DNA of 64,000 nt from the NCBI GenBank assembly GCA_045646605.1, contig JAZRLA010000002.1, positions 15,940 through 79,939 of the forward strand, read 5' to 3'. This document shows, one piece after another, positions 1,620 through 58,240 of this stretch. This DNA is from Candidatus Enterousia sp. GTDB taxonomy: Bacteria > Pseudomonadota > Alphaproteobacteria > Rs-D84. A program made the translations under genes and the position numbers. Under the pieces are notes generated by a model. The model had not been told where the DNA came from and did not search any database. It worked only from the letters and a program-made list of their open reading frames with translations. The first letter of the stretch is position 1, and each line of letters starts with the position of its first letter.

Positions 1620-4600
1620 ATGGCAGTTATCCAAAAATTAAGAAAATCTTTTGGTAAAAGTTTTTTGCAAACTCCGCTTCCTGATTTAATAGAAATTCAA
1701 TACAATTCCTACAAGGAATTCTTGCAGGGCGATGTTGCACCCCAAAATCGTAAAAACAAGGGGTTGCAAAGTGTATTTACTTCTATGTTCCCAATCAAGG
1801 ATTATGCGGGGGCCGCCGAATTGGAATTTGTTGAATACAATTTGGAAAAACCGGCGTATAACGTCAAAGAATGCCTTGCGCGGAAAATGACGTATTCAAG
1901 CAAGTTAAAACTTAAATTAAAACTGATTTTGTGGGATGTCGCCGAAGATGGCAAAAAGTCATTGCGCGATATCAAAGAACAAGAAATCTTTATGGGCGAA
2001 GTGCCACTTATGACCGAACGGGGCAGTTTTATTGCATCGGGCGTAGAGCGCGTCATTGTTTCGCAAATGCATCGTGCCCAAGGTGTTGTTTTCGCAACCA
2101 CCAAAGAGGCCAAAATTGCCGGAAATCCTATTACATATACCGCGCGTATAATTCCGGAACACGGTTCTTGGATTGATTTCGAAGAATCCAAGGGGGTTAT
2201 ATATGTTCGTATCGACCGTCGTCGTAAAATTCCGGCAACGGTTTTATTACGTTGCTTACCGTGTGCCGAAGACGAAAAGAAATGGGTGGCGGAACCGCGC
2301 AAACCGACAATTCGCGGAATGTCTGATACTGAAATTTTATCGGTGTTCTACAAACGTATCGCGCTTAATAACAACGGTAAATTGTGGGTTGGTGACACAT
2401 CCGTGTTCGAAGGTTTGGATAAATATCGTTTAAATTACGATTTGATAAACCCCAAGGATAAAAAAGAATTGGCGGCCAAGGGTGATCGTTTGAACGCAAA
2501 GCGCTTAGGCAAGATTATGACCGCATCAAAACAATTCGGTATTTTGCCGGATGCGTTGGTGGGTGAATATTTGTTTGACCCGATTATGTCCGCGGGCGAA
2601 GTGATTTACCCGTCGGGTACCGAAATCACCGAAGAGGTTTTGGCCGATATCGAAAAACTTGGTATCAAAGATATTTCTTTGATTTCGATTGATAACACAA
2701 CGATAACCGCACACATGCGTAACACATTAGTTGCGGATAAAACGACAAATCGTGAAGATGCGTTAATCGAAATTTATAATATCATCAGACCGGGTGAACG
2801 TCCAACATTAGAGGCGGCAATTAACTTGTTCATGCGTCAAGGATTCGAAGCGGCATATTATGATCTTTCGCCAGTTGGTCGATTCAAAATGAACAAACGT
2901 TTGAAAATTGATTCTGGGAAAAAGCCCGAAGACGAACGTTTGCTGACCAAAAACGATTTTCTTGCGGTGTTAAAAACTTTGACGAACATCATCGACCACA
3001 AAGACACGATTGATGATATTGATAACCTTTCAAATCGTCGTGTTCGTACTGTTGGTGAATTGTTGGAACAAAATTTCCGTACCGGTATGGTTCGTATTGA
3101 ACGTCTTGTGCGCGAAAGTTTGTCTTCGCCGAATATTGCAACAATGCAACCCCAAGATGTTGTCAATGTCAATCCGTTGATGTCATTGGTTGCGGAATTC
3201 CTTGGGACAAGTCAATTGTCACAGTTTATGGATGCATACAATCCTCTTTCGGAATTGGAACACAAACGTCGTATATCTGCGTTGGGGCCTGGGGGACTTA
3301 ATCGCGAACGTGCTGGTATTGATGTACGCGACGTTCATCCAACACACTATGGACGTCTTTGCCCAATTAACACACCCGAAGGTGCAAACATTGGCTTGAT
3401 TAACCACCTTGCGTCTTATGCGCGTGTGAATCCATACGGATTTATTGAAACACCGTATTATGTTGTAGAAAACAGTAAGATTACAGACAAGATGGTCTAT
3501 CTTACCGCGGACGAAGAACTGGGACACAAAATTGCCCAAGGTAATACCCCAACAAATGACAAGGGTGTTTTGACCGAAGAAATGGTTACCGCGCGTGTTG
3601 ACGGTGAATTTACACGTGTACCACGTGGCGAAATCGATTTAATCGACGTTGAACCGCGCCAGGTGGTGTCCATTTCGACCGGACTTATTCCATTTGTTGA
3701 AAACGACGACGCGAACCGTGCATTGATGGGTTCAAACATGCAGCGTCAGGCCGTGCCACTCATGCGGGTGCAAACACCACTTGTTGGAACGGGGATTGAG
3801 CGTGAGGTTGCACGCGATTCTCGTACGGGCAAGGTCGCAAAGCACAGTGGTATCGTTGAATCTGCGGACGCAAATCGTATTGTTGTAAAATGTATGAACA
3901 GCCGCAATGTTGTGACGGGTGTGGACATTTACAATTTGGAAAAATACGAACGTTCAAACAATGATACGATTTTACATCAAAAGCCATTGGTTCATGCGGG
4001 TGACCGTATATCCGCGGGCGATATCATTGCGGACGGTTCGTCAATGAACTATGGTGAATTGGCGTTGGGTCGCAATGTCTTGGTTGCGTTCGTGCCATGG
4101 CGCGGATATAACTATGAAGATTCCATTGTGATTTCCGAACGTATTTCGCGTGATGATGTTTTCACATCGGTCAAAATTGTGGAAAAAGAAATCAAGGTTC
4201 GCGATACACAATTGGGGCCTGAAAGCTTAACGCGCGACATTCCGAACGTTAGTGAAGAAGCGTTAAAGAATTTGGACGAATCCGGTATTATCTATATCGG
4301 TGCACGTGTGAAACAGGGTGATATTTTGGTTGGCCATGTATCGCCGAAATCTGAAACATTGCTTACCCCCGAAGAAGCGTTGTTGCGTAACATCTTTGGT
4401 GAAAAGGCATTGAATGTAAAGGATACATCACTGCGTGTTGGTCCGAACGAAGAAGGAACGGTTATCGGTGTGAACGTCCTGACCAGACATGGGGTCAAGA
4501 AAGATGAACGTACCCAAATGATTGAATTGGAAAAAATCGCCAAGATAAATAAAGATCGTGACGAAGAAATCCAAATCATGGAAAAAGGTTTCGCCGACCA

Positions 4601-5756: not shown

Positions 5757-5852
5757 AGTGTTAGTGTAAGTGGTTAGTGGTTAGTAAAGAAATGCTAGCC
5801 GTCACTAACCACTAACACCGACCACTAACCACTAAGTAAGGAGCTTAGAAAA
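5757..5852. repeat. rpoB-rpoC intergenic inverted repeat built from GTGGTTAGTG/CACTAACCAC units
   Basis: …GTGTAAGTGGTTAGTGGTTAGT…GTCACTAACCACTAACACCGACCACTAACCACTAAG…. Imperfect long hairpin; the same unit recurs elsewhere in the window. Confidence 0.55.
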
Positions 5853-8800
5853 ATGGCAAATATGTTGCAAAAGATATTTGGACAAATCGAAACAAGGGAA
5901 CAATTTGATGCGTTGCGTGTGACAATTGCATCGCCGGAAGAAATCCTTTCTTGGTCCCATGGCGAAGTTACAAAGCCAGAAACGATAAACTATCATTCGT
6001 TGAAACCGGAACCGGATGGATTGTTCTGTCAAAAGATTTTTGGCCCCGTCAAAGACTATGAATGTGCATGCGGAAAATATAAAAGAATTAAATTCCGTGG
6101 CGTTATCTGTGAACGTTGTGGGGTCGAAGTTGGATCTGCATCTGTTCGTCGTGAACGTATGGGACATATCAAATTGGCGATGCCGGTTGCGCACACTTGG
6201 TTCCTGCGTGAAGGTAAGATTGCGACCCTGTTGAATAACCTGTCGCAAAAGAAATTGGAACAGGTTGTATCCTATGATGCATATATCGTTATTGAACCAG
6301 GGCTTACAAATCTTAAACAATACGATGTCATAAGCGAAGATGAATATCGTGCCGCGGTTGAAGAATATGGTCCGGATGCGTTCCGCGTTGGTATCGGTGC
6401 CGAAGGTGTACGCAGTATTATCGCAAACCTTGATATGGGCGATGAAAGAACACGTCTGCGCGCGGAATTGGCGGAAACAAAATCCGAAGCAAAGCGCAAA
6501 TCCATTATGAAGCAACTTAAATTAGTCGAAGCGTTCCTGGATTCAAAAACCGAACCGCAATGGATGTTGCCGGATATTATTCCGGTTATCCCACCGGATA
6601 TGCGACCACTTGTCACATTGGATGCGGGACATGTTGCGGCATCTGATTTGAACGATTTGTATCGTCGTGTGATTATTCGTAACAATCGTTTGAAACGGTT
6701 TATGGAAATGCATGCACCTGAAATTATCGTTCGCAATGAAAAGCGCATGTTACAAGAAGCCGTTGATTCATTGTTTGATAACGAACACAAAACGCGTCCG
6801 ATGGTTTCGCAAAATCGCCGTCCGCTTAAATCATTGTCTGGGTCATTGCGCGGTAAATCCGGTCGTTTCCGTATGAATTTGTTGGGTAAACGTGTGGATT
6901 ATTCCGGGCGCAGCGTGATTGTGTCTGGGCCATCATTAAAGATGCACCAGGTCGGTTTGCCAAAAGCGATGGCATTGGAATTATTTAAACCGTTCGTATT
7001 TGCACGTTTGATGGCGGGTGATTATGCCAATACATTAAAGACTGCACGTAAAATGGTTGAAAATGGTGAACCGGTGGTGTGGGATATTTTGGAAAAGGTC
7101 ATCCATGAACATCCGGTTTTGCTGAATCGTGCGCCATCTTTGCACCGTTTGTCGTTGTTGGCGTTTGAACCGGTTTTGATTGAAGGCAAGGCAATTCGTT
7201 TGCATCCGTTGGTTTGCAAGGGATTCAATGCGGACTTTGACGGTGACCAAATGGCCGTGCATGTTCCAATTTCATTAGAAGCCCAGTTAGAGGCACGCAC
7301 ATTGATGTTATCTACCAATAACATTTTGTCGCCGGCAAATGGTGAACCTATGACCGTTCCGTCACAAGACATGGTTTTGGGTATTTACTATATTTCGTTA
7401 ATGGATGGTGAACATACCGACAAATCTCCACGGTTTAGTGGTATGGACGAAGTTGAAATGGCATTGGAAAACAAGACAATTACACTGCATACCCCAATTG
7501 TTGCGCGTATCAATGGTAAAACATATAAAACAACCGCGGGTCGTATGATTATCGGGCAATTGTTACCAAAATCTGAAAATATGCCGTTTGATTTGGTGAA
7601 CAAGGTTATGGGTGAACCTGATATTCGTGCGTTACTTGCGACCACATACGAACGTTGCGGTGATAAAGCAATGATTCTGCTTGCCGATGCGTTAAAGAAT
7701 ACCGGGTTTGAACAGGCGGCGCGCAGTGGTATTTCAATTGGTTATGATGACGTTGTTATTCCCGAAGAAAAAGAAACAATGATTGCCGACACCGAAGAAG
7801 CCGCAAAGGATATCGAAGATCAATATCAAAACGGTTTGCTATCGGGTGGTGAACGTTATAACAAACTGATTGATTTATGGCAAAAAACAACCGATCGTCT
7901 TGGTGATTTGTCTTTCGCTGCGCTGGGTCGAAATCACGGTAACGATTGGAACTCTATCTATATGATGGCGGATTCCAAGGCACGTGGTTCGAAACGCCAG
8001 ATTCAACAGCTTGCCGGTATGCGTGGTATGATGTCAAAGCCGGACGGTTCGATTATCGAAGTTCCAATTATTTCGAACTTTAAAGAAGGCCTTACTATGG
8101 CGGAATACTTTACATCAACCCACGGTGCGCGCAAAGGTTTGTCCGATACCGCGTTGAAAACAGCGCAAGCGGGTTATTTGACGCGTCGTTTGGTTGATTT
8201 GGCATTAAACACCGTTATTACCGAACATGATTGTGGAACCAAGGAATATATTACCGCAAAGCCTGTATACCAAGGCAGCACACTTTCCGTTCCGCTTGGT
8301 AACGTTGTTTTGGGTCGCACCGCGGCACATGATATTGTCCATCCAATCACCAAGGAAGTTATCGTTCCGGCCGGCGAACTGGTAACCAAGGCCGCTGCAC
8401 GCAAGATAAACGAATCTGGTTTGCCAAGTGTTGATGTGCGCAGTGTTCTAACGTGTTGCAGTGATGGTTTGTGCGCAAAGTGCTATGGTATGGATTTATC
8501 GCGTCAATCACTGGTTCATGTTGGCGAAGCCGTCGGCGTTGTCGCAGGTCAATCCATTGGTGAACCGGGAACCCAATTGACATTGCGTACCTTCCACATT
8601 GGTGGTATCGCGTCCGGTGGAACCGAAAGTCATTATATAGAGGTTCCAGTCGCCGGTAAAATAAAGTTAATTGGTGTTAACACAATTAAAAATTCTGCGG
8701 GCCGCGTTGTTGTCCTTTCCCGTAATGGCAAGGTCGTGGTTGAATCACCATCTGGTGAAGAATTATTTAGTTGCGGTTTGCCGTATGCATCTATGTTGAT

Positions 8801-9962
8801 TGTGAATGAAGGTGACACGGTCGAAAAAGGTGCCAAGGTCGCAGAATGGGATCCATATTCCAACACAATCATTGCGGAAAAAGATGGTATCGTAAACTTT
8901 AACGATTTGGTTGAAAACGTTTCGTTCCAAGAAGAAGTTGACCCAACAACCGGCATAATTTCGCGCAAAGTTATCAATTGGAAATTAAACACGAAAAAGG
9001 CGATGCAACCGGCAATCCGTTTGGTAAATGAAAAAGGTGATATCCTTTCGCTTGGTGGAAAAAAGGTCGCGGAATATCTGTTGCCGATTCATTCGGTTTT
9101 GAACGTCGCGAACGGCGCAACGGTTGCAGCGGGTGATGTTTTGGCACGCATACCGGTTCAGGCAAAGCGTACGGGCGATATTACCGGTGGTTTGCCACGC
9201 GTCGAAGAATTGTTAGAGGTTCGTCGTCCGTCCAACCCGGCATTACTTGCGGAAATTGATGGAACGGTCGAATTGGAAGATGCAAAATCGAAAATCATCA
9301 TTCGCATTGAACCAAATGATGGAACTGCGCCGGTGGAATATGCGGTACCAAAGGGAACAAATCTGTTGGTACGCAGTGGTGATGTCGTCAGAAAGGCGGA
9401 TAAATTGGTTGATGGTGATCCCGTCCCCCAAGATATATTACGTATCTTGGGTCAAAAGGCACTTGCAACCTTTATGGTCGAACAAATTCAACAGGTTTAC
9501 CGGCTTCAGGGCGTGTCCATCAACGATAAACACATTGAAATTTTGATTCGTGAAATGACACGCCGTGTGGAAATCACCGATCCTGGTGATACCGGATTCC
9601 TGACTGGACATGTTGTTGACCGTGTCGATTTCGAAGAAGAAAATGCACGTGTTATTCACGATGGTGGTCGTCCGGCGGTCGCGTCCCAGGTTTTGGTTGG
9701 ACTTACACGCGCGTCGCTTACCACACGTTCGTTCATATCAAACGCATCGTTCCAACAAACGACCAAGGTTTTGGTGGATGCGGCAATCAATGGTTCAACC
9801 GATAAATTGGTTGGTATAAATGAAAACTTGATTGTTGGTCGTCTTATTCCAATTGGAACGGGCGCGTATGTCCGTCGCGTTCGCGAAATAGCAAAGGCCG
9901 AAGAAAAGGCCGAACGCATCGCGCGTGAAGGTGGCGAAAACCAACAATTGCTGGATTTATAG
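5853..9962 (+). CDS. rpoC: DNA-directed RNA polymerase subunit beta'
   Basis: 1369 aa. Zn-binding CxxC…CxxC N-terminus and the NADFDGD catalytic motif (…GFNADFDGDQMAVH…). Confidence 0.95.
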   Translation: MANMLQKIFGQIETREQFDALRVTIASPEEILSWSHGEVTKPETINYHSLKPEPDGLFCQKIFGPVKDYECACGKYKRIKFRGVICERCGVEVGSASVRRERMGHIKLAMPVAHTWFLREGKIATLLNNLSQKKLEQVVSYDAYIVIEPGLTNLKQYDVISEDEYRAAVEEYGPDAFRVGIGAEGVRSIIANLDMGDERTRLRAELAETKSEAKRKSIMKQLKLVEAFLDSKTEPQWMLPDIIPVIPPDMRPLVTLDAGHVAASDLNDLYRRVIIRNNRLKRFMEMHAPEIIVRNEKRMLQEAVDSLFDNEHKTRPMVSQNRRPLKSLSGSLRGKSGRFRMNLLGKRVDYSGRSVIVSGPSLKMHQVGLPKAMALELFKPFVFARLMAGDYANTLKTARKMVENGEPVVWDILEKVIHEHPVLLNRAPSLHRLSLLAFEPVLIEGKAIRLHPLVCKGFNADFDGDQMAVHVPISLEAQLEARTLMLSTNNILSPANGEPMTVPSQDMVLGIYYISLMDGEHTDKSPRFSGMDEVEMALENKTITLHTPIVARINGKTYKTTAGRMIIGQLLPKSENMPFDLVNKVMGEPDIRALLATTYERCGDKAMILLADALKNTGFEQAARSGISIGYDDVVIPEEKETMIADTEEAAKDIEDQYQNGLLSGGERYNKLIDLWQKTTDRLGDLSFAALGRNHGNDWNSIYMMADSKARGSKRQIQQLAGMRGMMSKPDGSIIEVPIISNFKEGLTMAEYFTSTHGARKGLSDTALKTAQAGYLTRRLVDLALNTVITEHDCGTKEYITAKPVYQGSTLSVPLGNVVLGRTAAHDIVHPITKEVIVPAGELVTKAAARKINESGLPSVDVRSVLTCCSDGLCAKCYGMDLSRQSLVHVGEAVGVVAGQSIGEPGTQLTLRTFHIGGIASGGTESHYIEVPVAGKIKLIGVNTIKNSAGRVVVLSRNGKVVVESPSGEELFSCGLPYASMLIVNEGDTVEKGAKVAEWDPYSNTIIAEKDGIVNFNDLVENVSFQEEVDPTTGIISRKVINWKLNTKKAMQPAIRLVNEKGDILSLGGKKVAEYLLPIHSVLNVANGATVAAGDVLARIPVQAKRTGDITGGLPRVEELLEVRRPSNPALLAEIDGTVELEDAKSKIIIRIEPNDGTAPVEYAVPKGTNLLVRSGDVVRKADKLVDGDPVPQDILRILGQKALATFMVEQIQQVYRLQGVSINDKHIEILIREMTRRVEITDPGDTGFLTGHVVDRVDFEEENARVIHDGGRPAVASQVLVGLTRASLTTRSFISNASFQQTTKVLVDAAINGSTDKLVGINENLIVGRLIPIGTGAYVRRVREIAKAEEKAERIAREGGENQQLLDL

Positions 9963-10020
9963 GGGAACGCAAAAGTTCCCCTCTGGCTAGAGGGGTGCCC
10001 GAAGGGCGGGGTGGTCTTTT
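9963..10020 (+). terminator. rpoC terminator region with overlapping alternative hairpins
   Basis: AGGGGAAC-GCAAAA-GTTCCCCT and CCCCTCT-GGCT-AGAGGGG share the CCCCT segment, then a GCCC-GAAG-GGCGGG hairpin. Weak U tract. Confidence 0.4.
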
Positions 10021-10099
10021 CACCAAGCCAGGGCAAAGCCCTGGCGCAGTCTCGGCGTAGTCGCGTCACCGCTGTGCGGTGACGGACAAAGACGGATAA
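10021..10099. repeat. 79-bp GC-rich two-hairpin repeat, copy 1
   Basis: CACCAAGCCAGGGCAAAGCCCTGGCGCAGTCTCGGCGTAGTCGCGTCACCGCTGTGCGGTGACGGAC(A/G)AAGACGGATAA. Identical except for 1 nt to the copy at 10570-10648. Internal hairpins CCAGGG-CAAAG-CCCTGG and GTCACCG-CTGTG-CGGTGAC. Confidence 0.75.
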
Positions 10100-10111
10100 C
10101 CACTAACACTA

Positions 10112-10510
10112 ATGACTTCCAAACCTGCAATTTTTTGTGATATCGACGGTGTGGTGTCCAAGAAATGGGCTATTGCCGACTATGATCGCTTTGGTGAACC
10201 GAACGCGAATATGATACGTGTACTCGAAACATTGGGTCGGGATTTTACAATCGTCTTTATAACGGGGCGTTGGGCGATGGGCCAGGCCAAGGTGGACGCA
10301 TTTATCGACGGATTGCTGCCGAATATTAAAAAAATCGTATTCTGCAAGCCGCACGATTACCCCGGTACAACGGCGGAATATAAATTGGCCAAGATTATGG
10401 AATTGGAATCAGATGGCTATCAATTCTATCTTGGGCTTGACGACCATAGTGCGGTAATTGGATTGATGCACAACCACGGCATGTTCGTCGCCAAGGTGAT
10501 AAGTGACTAG
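10112..10510 (+). CDS. Minimal HAD-superfamily phosphatase (132 aa)
   Basis: HAD motif I FCDIDGV, motif II (T in VFITGR), Lys, and motif IV-like GLDDHS. Bracketed by the 79-bp direct repeats. Confidence 0.55.
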   Translation: MTSKPAIFCDIDGVVSKKWAIADYDRFGEPNANMIRVLETLGRDFTIVFITGRWAMGQAKVDAFIDGLLPNIKKIVFCKPHDYPGTTAEYKLAKIMELESDGYQFYLGLDDHSAVIGLMHNHGMFVAKVISD

Positions 10511-10569
10511 AAATAATTGGGGTGGAGTGTGTCGTTGTAACACACTAACCCGCTAGCCATTTACACTAA

Positions 10570-10648
10570 CACCAAGCCAGGGCAAAGCCCTGGCGCAGTC
10601 TCGGCGTAGTCGCGTCACCGCTGTGCGGTGACGGACGAAGACGGATAA
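10570..10648. repeat. 79-bp GC-rich two-hairpin repeat, copy 2
   Basis: Direct repeat of 10021-10099 with one mismatch; preceded by CACTAAC-type motifs. Confidence 0.75.
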
Positions 10649-10719
10649 ATCACAATTTTTTTCTTGCAAATGGGCAAGAATTGGATAGAATTAATAACTG
10701 TCGAATAAAAGGATAGAAA

Positions 10720-10927: not shown

Positions 10928-11995
10928 ATGACCGACGAAACAAAGAAAATTATTGCGATTGATGCGATGGGCGGCGACCGTGGACCGGCCGCGGTCTTGG
11001 GGGGTATAAATCAGTTTTTATACCAACACGGTGAATCACACACTTTTTTCCGTATATTTGGTGATGAAAAATTGTTGCGCAAATTACTTGCAAAATATCC
11101 GCGCGTTGCGCGCAATTCTACGGTAATCGATGCACCCGATATAATCCGTGGCACGGACAAGATTCGCGATGTAATTCGCCATGCGCAAAACACTTCGATG
11201 TATATGGCGATAAAGGATGTGCGCGAAGGACAGTCCGCCGCGGTGGTCAGTTCCGGGAACACCGGTGTTTTGATGTCGCTTTCGAAACTTGCGTTAAAGA
11301 CGGTTGATGGAATTTCGCGGCCGGCGATTACGACAATGTTGCCGTCGGGTGCGGGCGATTCCCGTGTGGTTGTTTTGGATTTGGGTGCAAATGTGCAATG
11401 CGATGCCGGAAACCTGTTTGACTTTGCCATTTTGGGCAGTGTTTATGCCGAAATCATCGGTAAAATGCAACGACCGAAACTGGGCGTTTTAAATATCGGC
11501 GAAGAAGAAACCAAGGGCAACGAAACATTGCAACATGTGAATAAATTGCTGACGACGCATCGCGCGGAATTGCCGTTCGAATACCTTGGGTTTGTAGAAC
11601 CCACGGACATCAGTGCCGGCCGGGTCCAGGTTGTTGTGACCGACGGATTCACCGGCAACATCGTTTTAAAAACTGTCGAAGGCACCGCGAAACTTATCAA
11701 GCGCGTTATTTCCGAAAATATGAAACGTTCGTGGCTTGCGATAATCGGCGCGTTCTTTTTGGTGCATGTGTTCAAACGGTTAAAGCATAAAATTGATCCG
11801 CGTTCTTATGCTGGCGCAACATTTTTGGGATTGAATGGGTTTGTGGTTAAAACGCACGGAAATTCAGATGCGCTGGCCTTCGCAAACGCGATACAATACG
11901 CATCTGAATTTGCCAAGAAAGATTTAAACGATATAATCGGCGGCCGTGTTGCAAACCTTGCCCACATCCGCGCCGAATTGCAATCTGCAGAATAA
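10928..11995 (+). CDS. plsX: Phosphate acyltransferase PlsX
   Basis: 355 aa, PlsX-like throughout (…IAIDAMGGD…, …GFTGNIVLKT…); follows rpmF. Confidence 0.9.
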   Translation: MTDETKKIIAIDAMGGDRGPAAVLGGINQFLYQHGESHTFFRIFGDEKLLRKLLAKYPRVARNSTVIDAPDIIRGTDKIRDVIRHAQNTSMYMAIKDVREGQSAAVVSSGNTGVLMSLSKLALKTVDGISRPAITTMLPSGAGDSRVVVLDLGANVQCDAGNLFDFAILGSVYAEIIGKMQRPKLGVLNIGEEETKGNETLQHVNKLLTTHRAELPFEYLGFVEPTDISAGRVQVVVTDGFTGNIVLKTVEGTAKLIKRVISENMKRSWLAIIGAFFLVHVFKRLKHKIDPRSYAGATFLGLNGFVVKTHGNSDALAFANAIQYASEFAKKDLNDIIGGRVANLAHIRAELQSAE

Positions 11996-12026
11996 TTTTT
12001 AATAAACATAATGTTATAAAAAACAT

Positions 12027-21977: not shown

Positions 21978-22200
21978 TTGCAGAGAATCGTCACCCCGCC
22001 GAAGGGCGGGGCCCAGGCCGAGCGTAGCGAGGACTTGCTCCGCAGGATTCTGAAACAAGTTCGAAATGACGATTTACTTGATGTCTGCGACGCAAGTTTT
22101 TACTTTCGCAAAAACTGGATCCCGGCCTTTGCCGGGATGACGGCGTTCTGGGAATTTGGCATAAAACACGGGCGCGAACGCGCCCGCACTAACCACTCAC
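21978..22200. repeat. Mosaic GC-rich hairpin repeat, instance B1
   Basis: Modules GTCACCCCGCCGAAGGGCGGGG, CCAGGCCGAGCGTAGCGAGGAC, GTCTGCGACGCAAGTTTTTAC…, GATCCCGGCCTTTGCCGGGATGACGGCGTTCTGG, then a GGGCGCGAACGCGCCC hairpin and CACTAACCACTAAC units. Shares modules with B2, B3 and B4. Confidence 0.6.
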
Positions 22201-22208
22201 ACTAACCA

Positions 22209-22499
22209 CTAACACTTGCGTGATACCCTTTCACGAAACTCTGCGCATGGCCGGAAAGAAACAACCCGTCGCGCCGTTACAATTGCCACCTCTCCGGTTT
22301 TTGGGTTGCGACCCACGCGTGCCGATTTATCCAAAATCTTGAATGTGCCGAAACCGGCAAACTTTACTTCTTCGCCATTTATTAATGATTCACATATTTC
22401 ATCAAATATTAAATCAATCAGTTTTCCTGACTGCGACGCCGTAAAGCCAAACTTGTCGCGCAATGTTAACGCCAAATCATTCCTTGTTATCGTTGCCAT
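22209..22499 (-). CDS. hup: HU/IHF-family DNA-binding protein
   Basis: 96 aa. …GFGTFKILDKSARVGRNPKTGEVAIVTARRVVSFRP… is the typical HU arm. Confidence 0.85.
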   Translation of the reverse strand: MATITRNDLALTLRDKFGFTASQSGKLIDLIFDEICESLINGEEVKFAGFGTFKILDKSARVGRNPKTGEVAIVTARRVVSFRPCAEFRERVSRKC

Positions 22500-32251: not shown

Positions 32252-32746
32252 TCATTTAACTTCATTCAATATCAAGTAGAAATCTGCGATATGTTCTGGG
32301 CTCATACCATTTAGTAAACTAACCGATGCGACAGAACCGAACGGGGCATAAAAATTGTTATCGAAGTTATAGTATTTACGGATACTATCGTTTATCTTAT
32401 TTTCCAGTGCGGACATTTGCATATGAATCATCATATTCCAAACTTTTTCTTGGATTTCATCATATTTGTAATCATCAAACCTGTAATTGTCCCAAAAATA
32501 ATTCAATATCTGTTCTGCTTGCGATGCTTCTAATTCTTTTATGCTTTCTGGAAAATTGTAACGCGGATGCGAATTACGGTATATATCCAGCTTTTCTTGA
32601 TTTACACCATACGCATTTATTCGTGCGGTATTATTGTCGGTTTGTGTGTTTTCATATTCAAGTATTTTATTAACAAAATCACTACGCCTATCGGCAACAG
32701 CAACCATTGGGACCAGCAATAATAATACAAACACTAACTTTTTCAT
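32252..32746 (-). CDS. Secreted hypothetical protein (possible periplasmic partner or immunity protein for the upstream GH108 protein)
   Basis: Signal peptide MKKLVFVLLLLVPMVAVA. AT-rich codon usage. Start overlaps the stop of the 32779..33636 gene by 4 nt. No known domain. Confidence 0.55.
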   Translation of the reverse strand: MKKLVFVLLLLVPMVAVADRRSDFVNKILEYENTQTDNNTARINAYGVNQEKLDIYRNSHPRYNFPESIKELEASQAEQILNYFWDNYRFDDYKYDEIQEKVWNMMIHMQMSALENKINDSIRKYYNFDNNFYAPFGSVASVSLLNGMSPEHIADFYLILNEVK

Positions 32747-32778
32747 ACACTTATTATTGCAGGATATATACAAGAAAA

Positions 32779-33636
32779 TCAATATCTATTTGTACGATTT
32801 GTCCATCCGTTGCCATATTTATCCCATCCGGGTAAATCCTTTAAGTATTCTATTCTGTTATCTTTTAAATCTTGCATAAAATCATCGATTTTATCGGTTG
32901 GAATACTGTTTAGTGCATCTATGGTTTTATCACCAATTTTCCCATCAACTTTTAAATTTTCGCCCATTGAATCATTTAGTATTTCTTGGACAAGTTTACC
33001 AACGTTTCTGAAATTACTCATAACACCCATATCAAATATAGCATTTGCAATACGGTCATCTTCTATATCACTAATACGACGGTCATCGTAGAAATTTTCC
33101 CCGTATATTTGTCTTGCCTGATTATTTGTTAAATCTTTTACCGCGTCCGGAAAGTTAAAGTCAGGGTGTTCCGTGTTATATTTATTTAGTGTCGGTTGGG
33201 TTATGCCAGAATTTGTGGGTTGGTCTATCTTATTTGGGTTATCAACATATCCGCCTTCTTCCGCCATAGTTTTACGAATTATATTTTGCTTTCGTTTATC
33301 AACGATCGGGTCATCATTATCATCCAGTTCTAGTTCTTCTATCCAACAACGGCAATTTAGATGATGTGGATGTTCCGGGATATCTTCTTCAGTTTCATAA
33401 ATAGTGCCGGAAAAACTTAGGCAATCATCACAAGTTTTTTCATCTTTTTCTGTATGCCAACACCACGCTCTTCTTATTGTTATACTGCGTCCGGTTGCAT
33501 CAATCGTGCTGTTGCCATATTTATTTTCGAAATAATTTTGAACTCGTCTTGTAACATTTTGGTGTTCTGGATTGCTAGAATTTGCATACGCATCACTTTG
33601 CATAAGGTTTAATATATTTTCTGGTATTTTGTTCAT
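32779..33636 (-). CDS. Mu F-like N-terminal segment fused to GH108 lysozyme and a PG_binding_3 peptidoglycan-binding domain
   Basis: N-terminus …TCDDCLSFSGTIYETEEDIPEHPHHLNCRCWIE… (HPxxNCRC signature of the Phage_Mu_F/SPP1 gp7 family). Middle …EEGGYVDNPNKIDQPTNSGIT…LTNNQARQIYGENFY… (GH108). C-terminus …DGKIGDKTIDAL…GWDKYGNGWTNR (PG_binding_3). Confidence 0.7.
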   Translation of the reverse strand: MNKIPENILNLMQSDAYANSSNPEHQNVTRRVQNYFENKYGNSTIDATGRSITIRRAWCWHTEKDEKTCDDCLSFSGTIYETEEDIPEHPHHLNCRCWIEELELDDNDDPIVDKRKQNIIRKTMAEEGGYVDNPNKIDQPTNSGITQPTLNKYNTEHPDFNFPDAVKDLTNNQARQIYGENFYDDRRISDIEDDRIANAIFDMGVMSNFRNVGKLVQEILNDSMGENLKVDGKIGDKTIDALNSIPTDKIDDFMQDLKDNRIEYLKDLPGWDKYGNGWTNRTNRY

Positions 33637-33779
33637 AATTTATCCTTTTGTTAAATAAAAAATCCGCTAAAAAGCGGACAAAAAAATGACACAAATGTGT
33701 CTTAAAACCAAGAGACATTTTATCATAAAAAACCAAAAAAATCAAGATGATATGTTATATCTCCCACGCCCGTTTTATA

Positions 33780-34349
33780 TCAATCTTTAAACAATATATC
33801 CATTATCGTATCAAATCTTTCTTTCAATTCTTTTTGCGATTCGGGACTTAGTTTTCGATAATCGCGCGCCAATTTGTTTTTAACAAATCCTTTTCCTTCC
33901 GGTATCGACAAATTCATTTTGTTATACGCCAAACTAAACAAAGATGGGATGTTATCAAAATGTGCAATAGCATCCGCATCGGCAAGAATTTGTTCTTCCG
34001 CCGTGTTGCGTGCGTCACTTTTACTGCCCCGATGGTGTAAAACGCATTTTTCAACCAAATCAATTTTTTCGGCCGGATATCCAAGTTCGGATAGTATCGA
34101 ACGTGTCATTTTCGCACCGTATATTTCATGTTCTTCGCGTGGACCAAATTCCGCGGCCATTGCCATATCGTGGAACAGTGCCCCCAGTTCGCAAACTTCA
34201 ACATCCGCACCGCGTTTAACCGCCAAATCATGCGCGTTTTGAAAGACATATTTTATATGCTCGTTCCAAAAATCATATCCGTCTTTTTCAAAAGATTTCT
34301 GGGTATATTCCAATAATTTGGCTTTTACGATTTCAACAATGTTTTGCAT
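33780..34349 (-). CDS. HD-domain phosphohydrolase
   Basis: H…HD motif (…ALFHDMA…), later His/Asp residues (…HH…DADAIAH…); 189 aa. Confidence 0.65.
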   Translation of the reverse strand: MQNIVEIVKAKLLEYTQKSFEKDGYDFWNEHIKYVFQNAHDLAVKRGADVEVCELGALFHDMAMAAEFGPREEHEIYGAKMTRSILSELGYPAEKIDLVEKCVLHHRGSKSDARNTAEEQILADADAIAHFDNIPSLFSLAYNKMNLSIPEGKGFVKNKLARDYRKLSPESQKELKERFDTIMDILFKD

Positions 34350-48178: not shown

Positions 48179-48312
48179 GGCAAATAGTGGTTAGTCCGTC
48201 ACGACCGCGACGCGGCGTGCCGCGACGGGTGTAAGTGGTTAATGATTAGTGGGAAGTAAACCCCGCCCTTGCGGCGGGGTCGATGCGACCGAGCGTATGC
48301 AACGGTCAAATC

Positions 48313-50196: not shown

Positions 50197-50281
<85 letters not shown>

Positions 50282-50589: not shown

Positions 50590-50712
50590 GTCTCGCTGCA
50601 GCGTAAGCGAAAGTGGATGGCAGGGCCACTCAAGCAATTCACGAGTTGATTTTATTCGTGAATTGTTAATATTCGGAAAAGATATTAAAGTGTTTTTGAA
50701 TAACTATATTTA
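50590..50712. repeat. Island structured repeat, copy C1 (variant 5' hairpin, att-like core and module 2)
   Basis: …TCGCTGCAGCGTAAGCGA…TGGCAGGGCCACTCAAGCAATTCACGAGTTGATTTTATTCGTGAATTGTTAATATTCGGAAAAGATATTAAAGTGTTTTTGAATA. Confidence 0.6.
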
Positions 50713-50738
50713 ACCACCTGTTATGTAATAACTTTGTT

Positions 50739-51428
50739 TTATAAGTGTAATTGGTTATCCTTGTATTTTTCTTTTATTAATTGTGCGTATCTTAATGCAG
50801 CACATTTTATCAGGGATTCGCATTTTGTATAACCATCTTTTAACATTTGTTGTGCAGGACATACATCAGGTGTTGAAACTTGGCATTTTTCACAAGAAAT
50901 ATTTTGTTTTGGCATACAATCGTGCGTATCCCATGGTTTGTGCCACTTACATCCAGCACAAGCACCAAGAACACTCATCGAATCAAAAATATATAATTGA
51001 TCCAAGCGTTGTGATTGTATATTAACTTCCACGCAAGAACCAACAAGAAACGAGGGACCGTAAAATGTTAAAACATATGGGACAGAATATTTTTGCAACC
51101 TTTTAAGCATTTCGCATTCTTGCACTTCGTTCGCTGTACGATCTATCAATTTCTTGCAACATGTATTTCCACGCATACCATCAATAGAAATGAATCTTAT
51201 TTCCGTAAAATGTTGCAATTGTTCACGAAAACAATATTCGTTTTTCCATCCCAATACAGGTTTTTGTAAATTTTCTTTCGAAACATGAATACTTTCTGTA
51301 TCTGTCGAGCGATTATATTGTGCTGTGTATACCATATCTTTTAATGCAGGACATTGCTGTGATTCTATATAACACCCATAGCATTGAAAGGCGATACAAT
51401 TATCTTTTGTATAAAATATTCTTTTCAT
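50739..51428 (-). CDS. Cys-rich hypothetical protein (229 aa), possible Fe-S or Zn protein
   Basis: About 24 Cys, including CIAFQCYGC (Cx4Cx2C) near the N-terminus, CC, CAGC and CEKC. No signal peptide. AT-rich codons. Confidence 0.5.
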   Translation of the reverse strand: MKRIFYTKDNCIAFQCYGCYIESQQCPALKDMVYTAQYNRSTDTESIHVSKENLQKPVLGWKNEYCFREQLQHFTEIRFISIDGMRGNTCCKKLIDRTANEVQECEMLKRLQKYSVPYVLTFYGPSFLVGSCVEVNIQSQRLDQLYIFDSMSVLGACAGCKWHKPWDTHDCMPKQNISCEKCQVSTPDVCPAQQMLKDGYTKCESLIKCAALRYAQLIKEKYKDNQLHL

Positions 51429-51484
51429 ATTAAAAACTTTTACATGATTATAATGTATGTGTTCCCAATATCAATATAAAAAAA

Positions 51485-51690
51485 GTTCGTAAATCAGCAA
51501 AACGGTCTCTGTTTTCAACACCTAACTTTCGAACTCACAGAACTATTGGAAATCCAATCAAAAAACCACCCGTTTGGGTGGTTTGAATTTTTGGCAGGGC
51601 CATCTGTGCAATTCACGAGTTGATTTGATTCATGAATTGTTGTTGTTTGGAAAAGAAATTAAGATTTTTTTGAATAAATACTATCATATC
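51485..51690. repeat. Island structured repeat, copy C2 (module 1 + TGGCAGGGCC + module 2)
   Basis: AGTTCGTAAATCAGCAAAACGG…CTTTCGAACTCACAGAACTATTGGAAATCCAATCAAAAAACCACCCGTTTGGGTGGTTTGAATTTTTGGCAGGGCCATCTGTGCAATTCACGAGTTGATTTGATTCATGAATTGTTGTTGTTTGGAAAAGAAATTAAGATTTTTTTGAATA. Confidence 0.65.
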
Positions 51691-51727
51691 TGAACTATGT
51701 TATGCAAATTATTGACATTTATATATT

Positions 51728-52603
51728 TTGTATTATATTATAAACGACAATAAGAGAAAAAACAAATTGGCAATTCAAATAGATTTTGACCGAGCCTTGC
51801 ATGATATGGAATATCATGATTCAACAACACGGGTAACCTTTGGGCCGTATTCGCCGACATATCTTATCGCAACAGATGAAGATGCAAACCAAGATATCAA
51901 ACGTTATATGTATAACGGAAAAGATAAAAAATACTGCGAAAAAGTTCTGACCGTATCGGCATCTGGCGACCATCCATTATTTTGTAAAATGTATGGTGCT
52001 AAACAAATTACTACTTTTGATATAACATATGCATCCAAAATAATTATGGATATTAAAACACTGGCTATAAAAAAGCTTACTTTTGACAACTATTGGCAAT
52101 TATTAAAAGATTTATGGAACAATCCGAACATTACATCTGTGTCAAATTTTGAGAGTATTATGCAAAAATTAGATTCAAACGAACAAAAATATATTCATAC
52201 AATGGATAGAAAATTCGCATTATTTAACTTTGGAACACCGCCAGGTTATTATCATGTTTCGGATACAAATAACCAAAAATCACTTTACGAAGGATTACAT
52301 CTGGCTGATTTGCCAACATTTCCTTTTATTTGGACTGATATTGAAGACCTGGACGCAAAATTGGGTGATAATACATATGATTTTATACATTTATCCAATA
52401 TCTTAGATTTTGTAAATGATGACATCAAAGTATCTGTTTTAAAACAATTGACGCAAAGATTGAATTATGGTGGTCGTATATTAATGCGCAGAATAAATGG
52501 CAATTATCAATTAGTCGACATATGTCAAAACATAGAAAAACAATCAGATGATTTAGGCTTTGTTAATCGTTGGGAACAAATGATTTTATTAAAATGCAGA
52601 TAA
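51728..52603 (+). CDS. Hypothetical protein (291 aa); weak resemblance to the DUF3419/BtaA-like SAM-binding family
   Basis: …VLTVSASGDHPLF… and …IHLSNILDFV… resemble DUF3419 signatures. AT-rich. The assignment is tentative. Confidence 0.5.
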   Translation: MYYIINDNKRKNKLAIQIDFDRALHDMEYHDSTTRVTFGPYSPTYLIATDEDANQDIKRYMYNGKDKKYCEKVLTVSASGDHPLFCKMYGAKQITTFDITYASKIIMDIKTLAIKKLTFDNYWQLLKDLWNNPNITSVSNFESIMQKLDSNEQKYIHTMDRKFALFNFGTPPGYYHVSDTNNQKSLYEGLHLADLPTFPFIWTDIEDLDAKLGDNTYDFIHLSNILDFVNDDIKVSVLKQLTQRLNYGGRILMRRINGNYQLVDICQNIEKQSDDLGFVNRWEQMILLKCR

Positions 52604-52620
52604 TCAAAACAATTTAATAG

Positions 52621-52815
52621 TTCGTAAATGTATGAAACGGCGGCGGTTTTTGATATCCGACTTACGAACTCACAGAACTATTGGAAATCCAATCAAAAAA
52701 ACACCCAAACGGGTGTTTTTGATTCTTGGCAGGGCCATCTGTGCAATTCACGAGTTGATTTGATTCATGAATTGTTGTTGTTTGGAAAAGATGTTAAGGT
52801 GTTTTTGAATACTAC
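52621..52815. repeat. Island structured repeat, copy C3
   Basis: Same two-module architecture as C2. The module-1 terminator hairpin reads CACCCAAACGGGTG here, against CACCCGTTTGGGTG in C2 (same stem, loop reverse-complemented). Confidence 0.65.
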
Positions 52816-52868
52816 CAACTTGACTTTGTAACGATTTTTGCTACTTTCTCAAATGAAAAGAGATATAT

Positions 52869-53273
52869 ATGTCAGATATTTCAAATAAAGAATACATCAC
52901 TATAAATAAAGATGGGGTTTTTGTTGGTGGAGAACCCGCAATTTATTATCGTGGCAAAAAAATGCATTCACAAAGTTTGACACAAACATATTTCCTTTAT
53001 ATACAAGAGAAATTTCCAGTAATTGAAGAAGTTCACGTCTTATCATCAAAAACCGAAGCCAAACTATACAATATAAATGAAAAGCCATCACAACAAGATG
53101 GAAAACATACATGGTGTCGTGTAAAATTTACTAACGGTAAAATGGGATATTGGACACCAAATTTAACGTGGAATAATGCGGTAGAAACCTATTGCTATTG
53201 TGTTGCTGATATTGGTTGGGATGCTGAATTTACCAAAAAATTATTCTTACCAAAAAACGAGAATGAAAGATGA
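52869..53273 (+). CDS. Hypothetical protein (134 aa)
   Basis: Clean ORF. Sigma70-like promoter (TTGACT-17-TACTTT) and RBS upstream. No recognisable domain. Confidence 0.5.
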   Translation: MSDISNKEYITINKDGVFVGGEPAIYYRGKKMHSQSLTQTYFLYIQEKFPVIEEVHVLSSKTEAKLYNINEKPSQQDGKHTWCRVKFTNGKMGYWTPNLTWNNAVETYCYCVADIGWDAEFTKKLFLPKNENER

Positions 53274-53277
53274 TAAA

Positions 53278-53412
53278 TTAAAAAGTTTGTAAATTGGCAA
53301 AACGGTGGCTATTTTTACTACACAACTTACGAACTCGTGAAAGTGTTGGAAAACAAAGAAAAATCGGGTATAAAACCCGATTTGTTTATTTTGGCAGGCC
53401 TACTCGGATTTG
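53278..53412. repeat. Island structured repeat, copy C4 (module 1 only) ending in a 21-nt copy of the tRNA-Glu 3' end
   Basis: GTTTGTAAATTGGCAAAACGG…ACTTACGAACTCGTGAAAGTGTTGGAAAACAAAGAAAAATCGGGTATAAAACCCGATTTGTTTATTTTGGCAGGCCTACTCGGATTTG. The final 21 nt match the 3' end of the tRNA-Glu gene (20 of 21 identical). Confidence 0.65.
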
Positions 53413-53554: not shown

Positions 53555-53629
53555 TGGCAGCCCTACTCGGATTTGAACCGGGATTCTCGCCTTGAAAGGG
53601 CGGTGTCCTAACCATTAGACGATAGGGCC
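53555..53629 (-). tRNA. tRNA-Glu (anticodon TTC)
   Basis: Reverse complement GGCCCTATCGTCTAATGGTTAGGACACCGCCCTTTCAAGGCGAGAATCCCGGTTCAAATCCGAGTAGGGCTGCCA is close to E. coli tRNA-Glu. Anticodon loop CTTTCAA. Confidence 0.85.
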
Positions 53630-53650
53630 AAAACGAAAGCACAAAAAAAC

Positions 53651-53728
53651 TGGCGGGATTGACGGGGCTCGAACCCGCGACCTTCTGCGTGACAGGCAGA
53701 CGCTCTAAACCAGCTGAGCTACAACCCC
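53651..53728 (-). tRNA. tRNA-Asp (anticodon GTC)
   Basis: Reverse complement GGGGTTGTAGCTCAGCTGGTTTAGAGCGTCTGCCTGTCACGCAGAAGGTCGCGGGTTCGAGCCCCGTCAATCCCGCCA. Anticodon stem TCTGC/GCAGA with loop CTGTCAC. Confidence 0.85.
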
Positions 53729-56741: not shown

Positions 56742-58106
56742 ATGCCGGCAAAAAGTGTTAATGATATTGTTGCCCTGTGCAAGCGTCGCGGGTTTATATT
56801 TACCGGGTCAGAGATTTACGGCGGACTGGGGGGGACATATGATTACGGCCCGTACGGCGTGGAATTGATGAAGAATATTCGCGCCGCATGGTGGAATGCG
56901 ATGATATATTCGCGCAACGATATCGAAGGTTTGGACGCATCACTGATTGGCAACCGGCTTATGTGGAAATATTCCGGACACGAAGGCGGTTTTTCCGACC
57001 CGTTGGTTGAATGCAAAAAATGTGGCGCCCGCATGCGCCAAGATAAAATGCGCGACCAAACAAAGTGCGACAATTGCGGTTCAACCGATTTAATGCCGCC
57101 GCGTGAATATCAATTAATGATGGGCCTTTCGATTGGTGCGGTTGCGGACGGCGAAGTCAACGCGTATCTGCGCCCGGAAACGGCGACAACAACATATATA
57201 AATTTCAAAAACGTGCTTGATTCCACACCGCACAAGTTGCCTTTTGGAATCGCCCAGATTGGCAAGGCGTTTCGTAACGAAATTTCCCCGCGTGGCTTTG
57301 TGTTCCGTATGCGCGAATTTGAACAGGCGGAAATGCAATACTTTGTCCGCCCGGGCGAAGATGAAAAATACTTTAACCAATGGCGCGAAACGCGTATCGC
57401 GTGGTGGACAAACGTCCTTGGGATACCGGCGAATAAATTGCGTTTCACACCGCACGAAAAATTGGCGCACTATGCCAAGGCCGCGGGCGACATCGAATAT
57501 GAATTCCCTGATGGATTTGATGAGGTCGAAGGTGTCCATAATCGTCAAGATTTCGACCTGGGGTCACATACGAAATCGCAAAATGAGTTCAAGATTGCGG
57601 CGCACGTTATGGAAAATAACGACAGCACGATAAAACTGTGCTATTCCGACCCGCAAACGGGCGAAAGTTTTATTCCGTATGTCATCGAAACCGCGATGGG
57701 TGTGAACCGCGCGATGATGGCACTAATGATAGAGGCGTATACCGAAGAGCAGTTACCCGACGGCAAATCACGCACGGTGTTAAAATTAAAACCGGCATTG
57801 GCACCGGTCAAGGCGGCGGTTATACCATTGGCACGCAATGTTCCCGAATTGGTGGGTTTGGCGGAAAATATCGAAAACGATTTACGGAAACTTGCCATCG
57901 GCCGTATCGAATTGGAAAATTCCGGTAATATCGGTAAAAACTATCGCCGGCACGATGAAATTGGCACGCCGGTTTGTATCACCGTTGACCACCAAACATT
58001 GGAAGATGGTATGGTGACAATGCGTTTCCGCGATACAATGGAACAGGTTCGTGTTGCGATTGCCGATGTGCCAGGGCGGGTGATGGAAATAGTCAGAGAG
58101 TGTTAG
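56742..58106 (+). CDS. glyQS: Glycyl-tRNA synthetase, single-chain alpha2 type
   Basis: …FTGSEIYGGLGGTYDYGPYG…, a class II core and a C-terminal anticodon-binding domain; 454 aa. Confidence 0.85.
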   Translation: MPAKSVNDIVALCKRRGFIFTGSEIYGGLGGTYDYGPYGVELMKNIRAAWWNAMIYSRNDIEGLDASLIGNRLMWKYSGHEGGFSDPLVECKKCGARMRQDKMRDQTKCDNCGSTDLMPPREYQLMMGLSIGAVADGEVNAYLRPETATTTYINFKNVLDSTPHKLPFGIAQIGKAFRNEISPRGFVFRMREFEQAEMQYFVRPGEDEKYFNQWRETRIAWWTNVLGIPANKLRFTPHEKLAHYAKAAGDIEYEFPDGFDEVEGVHNRQDFDLGSHTKSQNEFKIAAHVMENNDSTIKLCYSDPQTGESFIPYVIETAMGVNRAMMALMIEAYTEEQLPDGKSRTVLKLKPALAPVKAAVIPLARNVPELVGLAENIENDLRKLAIGRIELENSGNIGKNYRRHDEIGTPVCITVDHQTLEDGMVTMRFRDTMEQVRVAIADVPGRVMEIVREC

Positions 58107-58107
58107 T

Positions 58108-58240
58108 GGTAAATACGTCATCCCGCGGTATCGGGCCCCGCAAAATTTGAAAAATTTTGTGGGTGATGACAGGCGGGATCTTGTGGTTTCAACTATAATA
58201 ACAAGATACCGCCTTTCGGCGGTATGACGTTTTACTCTTT
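58108..58240. repeat. Mosaic GC-rich hairpin repeat, instance B3
   Basis: CGTCATCCCGCGGTATCGGGCC…GGGTGATGACAGGCGGGATC…GATACCGCCTTTCGGCGGTATGACG shares modules with B2. Between convergent glyQS and 58232..59917. Confidence 0.5.

Follow-up and report, generated by a model that had tools for sequence, protein, structure and literature searches.

The 64,000-nucleotide (nt) stretch of DNA analyzed here (the window) is taken from the + strand of contig JAZRLA010000002.1 of Candidatus Enterousia sp. (GCA_045646605.1) and covers about 7% of one Enterousia genome. Enterousia belongs to the order Rs-D84, with reduced genomes of ~0.75–1.0 Mb (PMC12306168). Within the window, a GC-rich 79-nt sequence occurs twice, once on each side of a gene for a protein of 132 amino acids (aa) that resembles capless phosphatases of the HAD superfamily, between rpoC and the genes rpmF and plsX. 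We consider it probable that the 79-nt sequence represents a structured, low-copy element of intergenic spacers comparable to the REP and RIME repeats, that it lies on both sides of a vertically inherited HAD gene, and that its downstream copy was made recently within the same genome. Judged from sequence comparison, the HAD gene appears to be older than the repeats and fixed between rpoC and rpmF-plsX, and would be a bystander rather than cargo. We base its vertical inheritance on its syntenic position down to 72% identity, mostly without any repeat nearby.

Exactly two copies of the element were found in the window by a repeat search and by a pattern search allowing 3 mismatches, at positions 10021–10099 (copy 1) and 10570–10648 (copy 2), both on the + strand. 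They are identical at 78 of 79 positions, with A10088 versus G10637 as the sole difference, as a preliminary description of this locus had noted in calling them near-identical direct repeats. None of 100 dinucleotide shuffles gave a 79-nt match with up to 3 mismatches, and neither short-word BLAST nor a covariance-model search detected a third full copy in the window. The two-hairpin, GC-rich structure proposed in the same description was reproduced by both RNA and DNA folding. Hairpin 1 (GCCAGGGC-AAA-GCCCTGGC) begins 6 nt from the 5′ end, and hairpin 2 (GCGTCACCGC-TGT-GCGGTGACG), which is extended by outer pairs, stops 10–15 nt before the 3′ end. The stems are GC-rich, with 8 and 9–12 base pairs and loops of 3 nt, and are separated by an invariant linker. 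The element reaches about −41 kcal/mol as folded RNA (z = −4.5) and −24.8 kcal/mol as single-stranded DNA (z = −5.8), and its reverse strand folds nearly as stably. The z scores of the hairpins range from −4.4 to −5.8.

An A-T pair in hairpin 1 is common to both window copies and was found in no other sampled copy, while the single base by which they differ lies in an internal loop, where copy 2 has the family consensus. Because of this private pair and the one-base difference, the window copies are likely each other's closest relatives, or a third, unseen copy in this genome gave rise to both. The recent duplication or recombination event that had been proposed for this locus is borne out by the same two observations. 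That a metagenomic mis-assembly merely duplicated a single element is hardly credible. The window probably stems from a metagenome-assembled genome, and we found no sequence of the same species to confirm the arrangement, but the copies differ at one base, each has distinct flanks that match those of the orthologous sites in relatives to its left and right, and the gene between them is intact and 96% identical to its homologs. A 79-nt repeat is also shorter than common k-mer and read lengths.

The element and the HAD gene in related genomes

We compared loci retrieved from relatives (labeled L001–L032) with the window as reference. No conspecific genome was found, the nearest loci being ~88% identical in DNA, and the exact HAD protein of the window had no entry in the assembly index. 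The order rpoB-rpoC-HAD-rpmF-plsX is present at HAD identities of 94% (L001/L002), 85% (L018), 83% (L003/L004) and 72% (L005/L006), as well as in 8 further loci retrieved via an identical L32 protein. Synteny of the HAD open reading frame (ORF) extends over more than 15 loci, the majority of which lack the repeat, and in distant lineages both spacers are only 30–80 nt long and show no trace of the 79-nt element. In a tree of rpoC, the window is sister to a clade of species that are mutually 91–99% identical and each ~88% identical to the window.

Among the close relatives, the two spacers around the HAD gene differ considerably. In L001, L002, L010 and L011, the element occupies the upstream spacer, and nothing is found downstream. 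The upstream spacer is empty in L012/L013, L014/L015 and L017, and here other ORFs follow the HAD gene before rpmF: one of 205 aa in L012/L013 (L012 3452–4069) and L017 (830–1447), and two of 431 aa and 378 aa in L014/L015 (3500–5951). L012/L013 additionally carry a 36-nt GC-rich hairpin at the site corresponding to copy 2. At this site, the 79-nt element is present only in the window, and neither form is present in L001, L014 or L017. In L031/L032, the HAD gene is missing altogether and a spacer of 126 nt (2875–3000) with a single tract of the heptamer CACTAAC separates rpoC from rpmF. The comparison of this interval in relatives, suggested in the preliminary description, thus gave an ORF kept with one upstream copy or with no copy at ~88% DNA identity. 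None of the variable ORFs behind the HAD gene matched Pfam or PADLOC. We also considered that the 431-aa and 378-aa ORFs of L014 might be relocated MFS and recA genes from the secB locus introduced below, and rejected this for want of any BLASTP similarity.

These alleles show that the bracketing arrangement is specific to the lineage of the window and its downstream copy a recent gain, that the HAD-rpmF spacer is a hot spot of gene insertion in close relatives, and that the interval between rpoC and rpmF is prone to rearrangement in the clade. The rpoC of L031/L032 is 87.7% identical to that of the window, sister to L012 and nested among species bearing the HAD gene. Because HAD-bearing lineages surround them in the rpoC tree, the absence of the gene in L031/L032 is a secondary loss, and it looks like a deletion from one tract to another that removed a gene very well conserved elsewhere. 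The direct copies of the element would, like the tracts, favor loss of the HAD gene by loop-out deletion. The L031/L032 allele, which bears tracts and not the 79-nt element, shows a loss of this kind, and direct repeats and tracts together predict that deletion of the HAD gene recurs.

To find the element elsewhere, we scanned 185,579 species genomes for the exact 27-mer of hairpin 2, allowing one observed covarying pair. This genome-wide search, likewise proposed earlier, yielded 4 loci in 3 genomes, all from Candidatus Enterousia sp. and related metagenome-assembled genomes, with 1–2 matches per GTDB genome. Genomes of element-bearing species include JAGCDW01, CALABO01 and JAZKZR01. Of the four loci, L010 corresponds to the rpoC-HAD site, and L007, L008 and L009 (from three GTDB genomes) represent a single orthologous second locus with the order secB, intrinsic terminator, element in reverse orientation relative to the genes, 27 nt, CACTAAC tract, promoter-like site, MFS transporter gene and recA. 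The site between secB and MFS-recA is empty in L020–L027, which are more distant relatives lacking a block of ~150 nt comprising element and tract. Across all JGI metagenome contigs, the invariant linker was matched once, on a contig of 316 kb that is identical to L001, and no further full copies were detected in 192 kb with the covariance model R1. Viral contigs scanned for either half or end of the element gave no match, and an origin as a phage attachment site was dropped on this ground. Overall, the element is present in ~1–3 copies per genome. The preliminary description had reasoned that a repeat found at many loci independently of the ORF, with the HAD gene conserved in position, would indicate ordinary REP-like elements rather than cassette borders. 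Conservation of the gene in place and a repeat without the ORF at secB/MFS-recA were both found, whereas a high copy number was not.

An ORF inserted into a repeat, captured by repeats or carried as a small mobile cassette had been considered in that description, and synteny without repeats as well as a repeat without the ORF contradict all three. In such a cassette, the HAD ORF and a flanking repeat would move as a unit, in an integron-like manner or by capture, and the repeats would be its borders. The likeness is real in that a small, promoterless-looking ORF is exactly bracketed by near-identical, imperfectly palindromic direct repeats whose 79 nt correspond to the length of integron attC sites, and in that the interval is variable in close relatives, where other ORFs follow the HAD gene or the gene is missing. 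Nevertheless, we regard a cassette as very improbable. The HAD gene has the same position in every sampled lineage down to 72% identity, mostly free of repeats; close relatives bear the ORF with one copy or none; and at the secB/MFS locus the repeat occurs without it. No integrase is encoded among the neighbors (rpoB, rpoC, rpmF, plsX and a PLD-like gene), and no recombinase lies within ±10 kb of any locus. The R″ and R′ core sites of integron cassettes (RYYYAAC/GTTRRRY) are missing as well, the element containing neither GTT nor AAC and having the borders CTAA|CACC and GATAA|CCAC. In the search of representative sequences described below, the protein family was limited to this lineage. A tempting but, in our view, wrong annotation as a mini-cassette is hereby removed.

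Insertion at heptamer tracts and short variants of the element

All six junctions available for the family read CAC | element | TAA and lie within runs of the heptamer CACTAAC or CCACTAA. Compared with an empty site, the inserted segment is 10024–10096 (73 nt), and the flanking CAC and TAA can be assigned to either the element or its target. At the upstream site, the empty allele of L012 reads ...TCTCTCAC|TAACCACTAACACTAAATG and the window reads TCTTTTCAC[73 nt]TAACCACTAACACTAATG; at the downstream site, L012 reads CTAACCAC|TAATCACAATTTTTTTCTTGC and the window CTAACAC[73 nt]TAAATCACAATTTTTTTCTTGC. Both sites align base for base. The upstream tract (CCACTAACACTA, CACTAAC-type, positions 10100–10111, + strand) directly abuts the start codon of the HAD gene. 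On the other side, the spacer 3′ of the gene (10511–10569, + strand) contains degenerate CACTAAC units at 10543 and 10564 and is homologous to the two ends of the L012 spacer, which there flank the 205-aa ORF.

On the + strand of the window, CACTAAC was observed 12 times versus 4.1 expected, and most occurrences are clustered in intergenic tracts. These lie at 5757–5836, 10100–10111, 10543–10570, 22185–22216, 48180–48252 and 58098–58110, the first being an inverted pair of tracts in the rpoB-rpoC spacer that has no GC-rich insert and no assigned strand. Tracts between rpoC and the next gene also occur in L005/L006, L014, L017 and L031. Ahead of the HAD start codon, 2–6 units were counted in L001, L005/L006, L012, L014 and L017, and their number differs among species. 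Frequently, tracts stand directly ahead of start codons lacking a Shine-Dalgarno sequence, as in the HAD and MFS genes, and inverted pairs give long hairpins past rpoB and rpoC. The tracts look like a simple repeat specific to the genus, and all GC-rich hairpin inserts have landed in them.

Shorter relatives of the element were found at the same type of site. A GC-rich hairpin of 35 nt (CCGTCGCGGCA...GGTCGTGACGGAC), identified by covariance-model search and comparison, lies on the − strand at 48194–48228, inserted at CAC^TAAC within a tract. Its homolog of 36 nt in L012 (4086–4121) is the hairpin mentioned above at the copy-2 site, so that the variant occupies two unrelated loci in two species. 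These 35–36-nt variants have the 3′ end of the 79-nt element. In L008, a variant of 55 nt that scores 45.5 bits with model R1 has hairpin 1 together with a second hairpin that is short and different. All members of 55 nt and 35–36 nt end in GTGACGGA(C).

Two observations on related sequences may be added. In L008 (3170–3295), the 55-nt variant lies just past the MFS gene and is preceded by GC-rich sequence in which a piece of the 3′ end of the element lies inverted (CATCCGTCTTCG), which suggests a mosaic of element fragments. In the window, GC-rich hairpins at 22100–22180 and 58110–58215 are followed by ATGACG-like motifs (ATCCCGGCCTTTGCCGGGATGACGG; GATACCGCCTTTCGGCGGTATGACG) and adjoin CACTAAC tracts; they may represent a second small repeat family.

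For the origin of the arrangement in the window, we propose that the upstream tract was occupied first, a state common to the L001/L010 species, and that the downstream tract received its copy afterwards, in the window lineage. Both spacers of the HAD gene simply happen to bear CACTAAC tracts, which fill gaps from a terminator to the promoter that follows. Copying may have proceeded by transposition in trans, or by template switching or gene conversion between tracts guided by microhomology, and copy 2 possibly overwrote a resident short variant such as that of L012.

A rival explanation is a miniature derivative of a single-strand transposon, either a PATE of the IS200/IS605 type or a REP mobilized by a RAYT, inserting 3′ of CAC in tracts. 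Like IS200/IS605-derived PATEs, the element has a subterminal hairpin at each end, a constant 5′ flank (CAC at 6 of 6 family junctions, where the boundary of element and target is ambiguous) and clean empty sites in relatives; it has no consistent target duplication and no terminal inverted repeats, its ends CACCAAG... and ...CGGATAA being non-complementary. In addition, the tetramer GTAG, located 2 nt ahead of hairpin 2, is invariant in 7 of 7 copies, although chance is possible for a 4-mer. This placement resembles that in class-2 REPs. As regards a full-length parent encoding TnpA, the genome scan for the core described above returned short elements only. We judge such a transposon improbable. 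No Y1 transposase or RAYT was found among the ten window ORFs scanned, and we know of none from these reduced genomes. Different from PATEs, there are very few copies, the 3′ flank (TAA) is constant too, which is unexpected for IS200/IS605 insertion, and orthologous copies are conserved in place with no sign of turnover.

In a bolder reading, the 79-nt and 35–55-nt elements would form an undescribed, site-specific miniature family homing to CAC^TAA in CACTAAC tracts, through transposition of a single-stranded DNA type or through tract-guided templated copying. They would persist in reduced genomes below 1 Mb because their hairpins have been co-opted by the host as functional structures of RNA or DNA, and the combined action of tracts and elements would cause genes to be gained and lost between rpoC and rpmF, with the HAD gene among the losses. 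This is doubtful. If copying targeted to tracts is true, the locus offers a small, tractable system for repeat persistence and for changes of gene order in reduced genomes.

Conservation and possible role of the element

Where orthologous sites are compared, the element has changed far less than its surroundings. At the secB locus, copies differ at 0–1 of 79 positions, versus 19–31 of ~150 in the remaining spacer (Fisher's p from 1e-5 to 3e-4). At the rpoC locus, where the flanking genes are 87–89% identical, the element differs at 4 of 79 positions and the spacer at 20 of 80 (p = 6e-4). Five of the six variable columns fall into stems, and all 155 scored cells stay paired. Compensatory double changes were observed from A-T to G-C in hairpin 1 and from C-G to T-A in hairpin 2, along with one G-U pair. 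The covariation is only suggestive, with six distinct sequences and 10 of 500 shuffles reaching the observed score.

The element sits in gaps between transcription units. Upstream of copy 1, GC-rich hairpins detected by terminator scan and folding lie past the rpoC stop codon and outside the repeat (9963–10020, + strand), including a terminator-like site at 9996–10013 followed by TCTTTT. This stretch is common to the window, L001 and L012, with ~25% divergence. Downstream, a promoter-like site for rpmF-plsX (TTGCAA-16-TAGAAT, 10664–10691, + strand; promoter scan and spacer alignment) starts 16 nt beyond copy 2 and is kept in all relatives.

These properties resemble those of the REP/BIME repeats of enterobacteria and the mosaic repeats of the RIME type in Rhizobiaceae. 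Shared features are the small size (35–80 nt), the high GC content, imperfect palindromes giving stable hairpins on either strand, the strictly intergenic position in gaps between terminator and promoter, either orientation, modular variants and compensatory changes in stems; with REP, the element further shares the conserved GTAG just 5′ of its second hairpin. It deviates in its ~1–3 copies per genome compared with tens to hundreds, in its invariable position at CAC^TAA in CACTAAC tracts, and in the lack of a RAYT among the ten ORFs scanned. In Rfam, no similarity to a described family was detected. At gathering as well as permissive thresholds there was no relevant match to the element, the best overlap being Bp1_684 with 14.2 bits versus a gathering score of 44 (E = 2.5), and only tRNAs reached the gathering score in the window. 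The element belongs to the known class of short structured intergenic repeats, and only its placement in tracts and its strong conservation are unusual.

The positions between terminator and promoter, the occurrence in both orientations and the conserved hairpins fit a role of the hairpins, in read-through transcripts or in DNA, as orientation-independent barriers or insulators at RNA 3′ ends, or as DNA-structure sites between transcription units. We infer such a role, and it would account for the strong conservation of the element.

Conservation of this kind also speaks for the main rival to a REP-like role, a functional small RNA gene or cis-regulatory RNA with 1–3 selected paralogs, in which case copy 2 would be a duplication with regulatory effect on the HAD gene or rpmF-plsX. 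At orthologous sites, conservation of the element exceeds that of the spacer next to it by a factor of 10–20, compensatory changes preserve both stems, and the lone wobble pair (G-U in L009) can pair only on the element's + strand. Moreover, a bidirectional intrinsic terminator directly follows the element at the secB locus, and a low copy number in a reduced genome speaks against selfish DNA. Against a small RNA speak the missing match in Rfam, the lack of a shared promoter-like site ahead of the copies, the presence of a terminator after the element at only 1 of 3 sites, and an orientation relative to neighboring genes that differs among loci. Empty sites in related species at all three positions show that the element is dispensable, and truncated or short variants at the same type of site look like those of a repeat family. 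On balance, a functional RNA seems rather unlikely.

Several points weigh against the low-copy REP/RIME-like element that we prefer. The scan of ten window ORFs against Pfam revealed no transposase, RAYT or other mobilizing gene. Classical REP and RIME families are far more numerous than the 1–3 copies per genome counted here, and conservation as strong as that of the orthologous copies would rather be expected of a functional RNA or protein-binding site than of selfish DNA. To account for its patchy distribution on the rpoC tree, the element must either have been gained twice at exactly the same site or have been precisely lost twice. The claim of a target site rests on six junctions at which the ownership of CAC and TAA is ambiguous, and no conspecific sequence was found by which copy 2 could be dated or its fixation in the population judged. 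Even so, the locus provides a concrete case, from an uncultured gut lineage with a genome below 1 Mb, of a rare structured repeat that is both patchy and strongly conserved.

The HAD protein and other features of the window

The HAD gene (10112–10510, + strand) was assigned from the ORF list, motifs, profile matches and synteny. The preliminary description had recognized an ORF of 132 aa with HAD motifs I–IV, and these motifs (D10-x-D12-G-V, T51, K79 and D110-D111) proved invariant in all 18 homologs, which share 72–96% identity. Motifs I–IV (DxDx[T/V], S/T, K and DD) on a Rossmannoid core place the protein in the HAD superfamily. Its capless fold had further been described as reminiscent of polynucleotide 3′-phosphatases, which is supported by three lines of evidence. 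The Pfam family HAD_PNKP (PF25109) matched 16 of 18 members at E ≤ 0.01 (best E = 4.9e-5), all below the gathering score of 27.6 bits, the window protein itself scoring 17.2 bits; phrog_415 (“polynucleotide kinase”) matched 18 of 18 members (best E = 1e-9); and the nearest folds in a fold comparison include the PNKP phosphatase. Sub-threshold matches to the Pfam families Acid_phosphat_B and LNS2 were obtained for 12 of 18 members each. A search of PDB sequences with the protein and the 18-member profile gave no meaningful match, a PADLOC scan of the protein gave no match, and no kinase or ligase domain was found in the protein or the neighboring genes.

The closest known protein systems are capless (C0) HADs such as the 3′-phosphatase domain of T4 Pnkp and Pnkp1, the LNS2/lipin phosphatidate phosphatases and the class B/C acid phosphatases. 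The window protein differs from these in its length of just 132 aa, in having no kinase or partner domain and in its Pfam scores, which are all below gathering thresholds. According to the fold matches, a polynucleotide 3′-phosphate and a lipid phosphate would both be compatible substrates. The resemblance to LNS2 and the adjacent plsX make a lipid phosphate as plausible as a polynucleotide 3′-phosphate, and these two points lean toward the lipid.

An exhaustive HMMER search of 1.84 billion representative sequences recovered 2 full-length clusters (at 50% identity) and a few fragments, all from this lineage, and the named homologs all come from uncultured gut Alphaproteobacteria. The available sequences support a minimal, capless, phosphatase-like HAD protein, presumably restricted to Enterousia-like bacteria. 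A protein so small, very highly conserved and lineage-specific near plsX is a reasonable target for biochemistry, although unsurprising in kind.

The placement of the gene between rpoC and rpmF, also part of the preliminary description, was confirmed by the ORF list and by Pfam domains of orthologs. The gene upstream of copy 1 is rpoC (5853–9962, + strand), which encodes the RNA polymerase beta′ subunit of 1369 aa and whose orthologs contain the Pfam domains RNA_pol_Rpb1_1–5. On the other side follow, both on the + strand, rpmF for ribosomal protein L32 (10720–10869; Ribosomal_L32p in orthologs) and plsX (10928–11995; FA_synthesis in orthologs). Between plsX and the next shared gene, L001/L011 carry groES-groEL and two more genes (~5.9 kb), which are missing at the corresponding position of the window (11996–12014).

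Two further regions of the window stand out by their low GC content. The region 32252–34349 (GC 0.34–0.36) may be a prophage remnant. Its products are an HD-domain protein and a GH108 lysozyme that also has a peptidoglycan-binding domain and weakly matches Mu F-like proteins. The lowest GC content of the window (0.30–0.39) is found at 50700–53300, between a tRNA-Leu gene (50197–50281) and tRNA-Glu/Asp genes (53555–53728). Most ORFs there have no Pfam match, one has matches to DUF3419 and methyltransferase domains, and the region may be an island.

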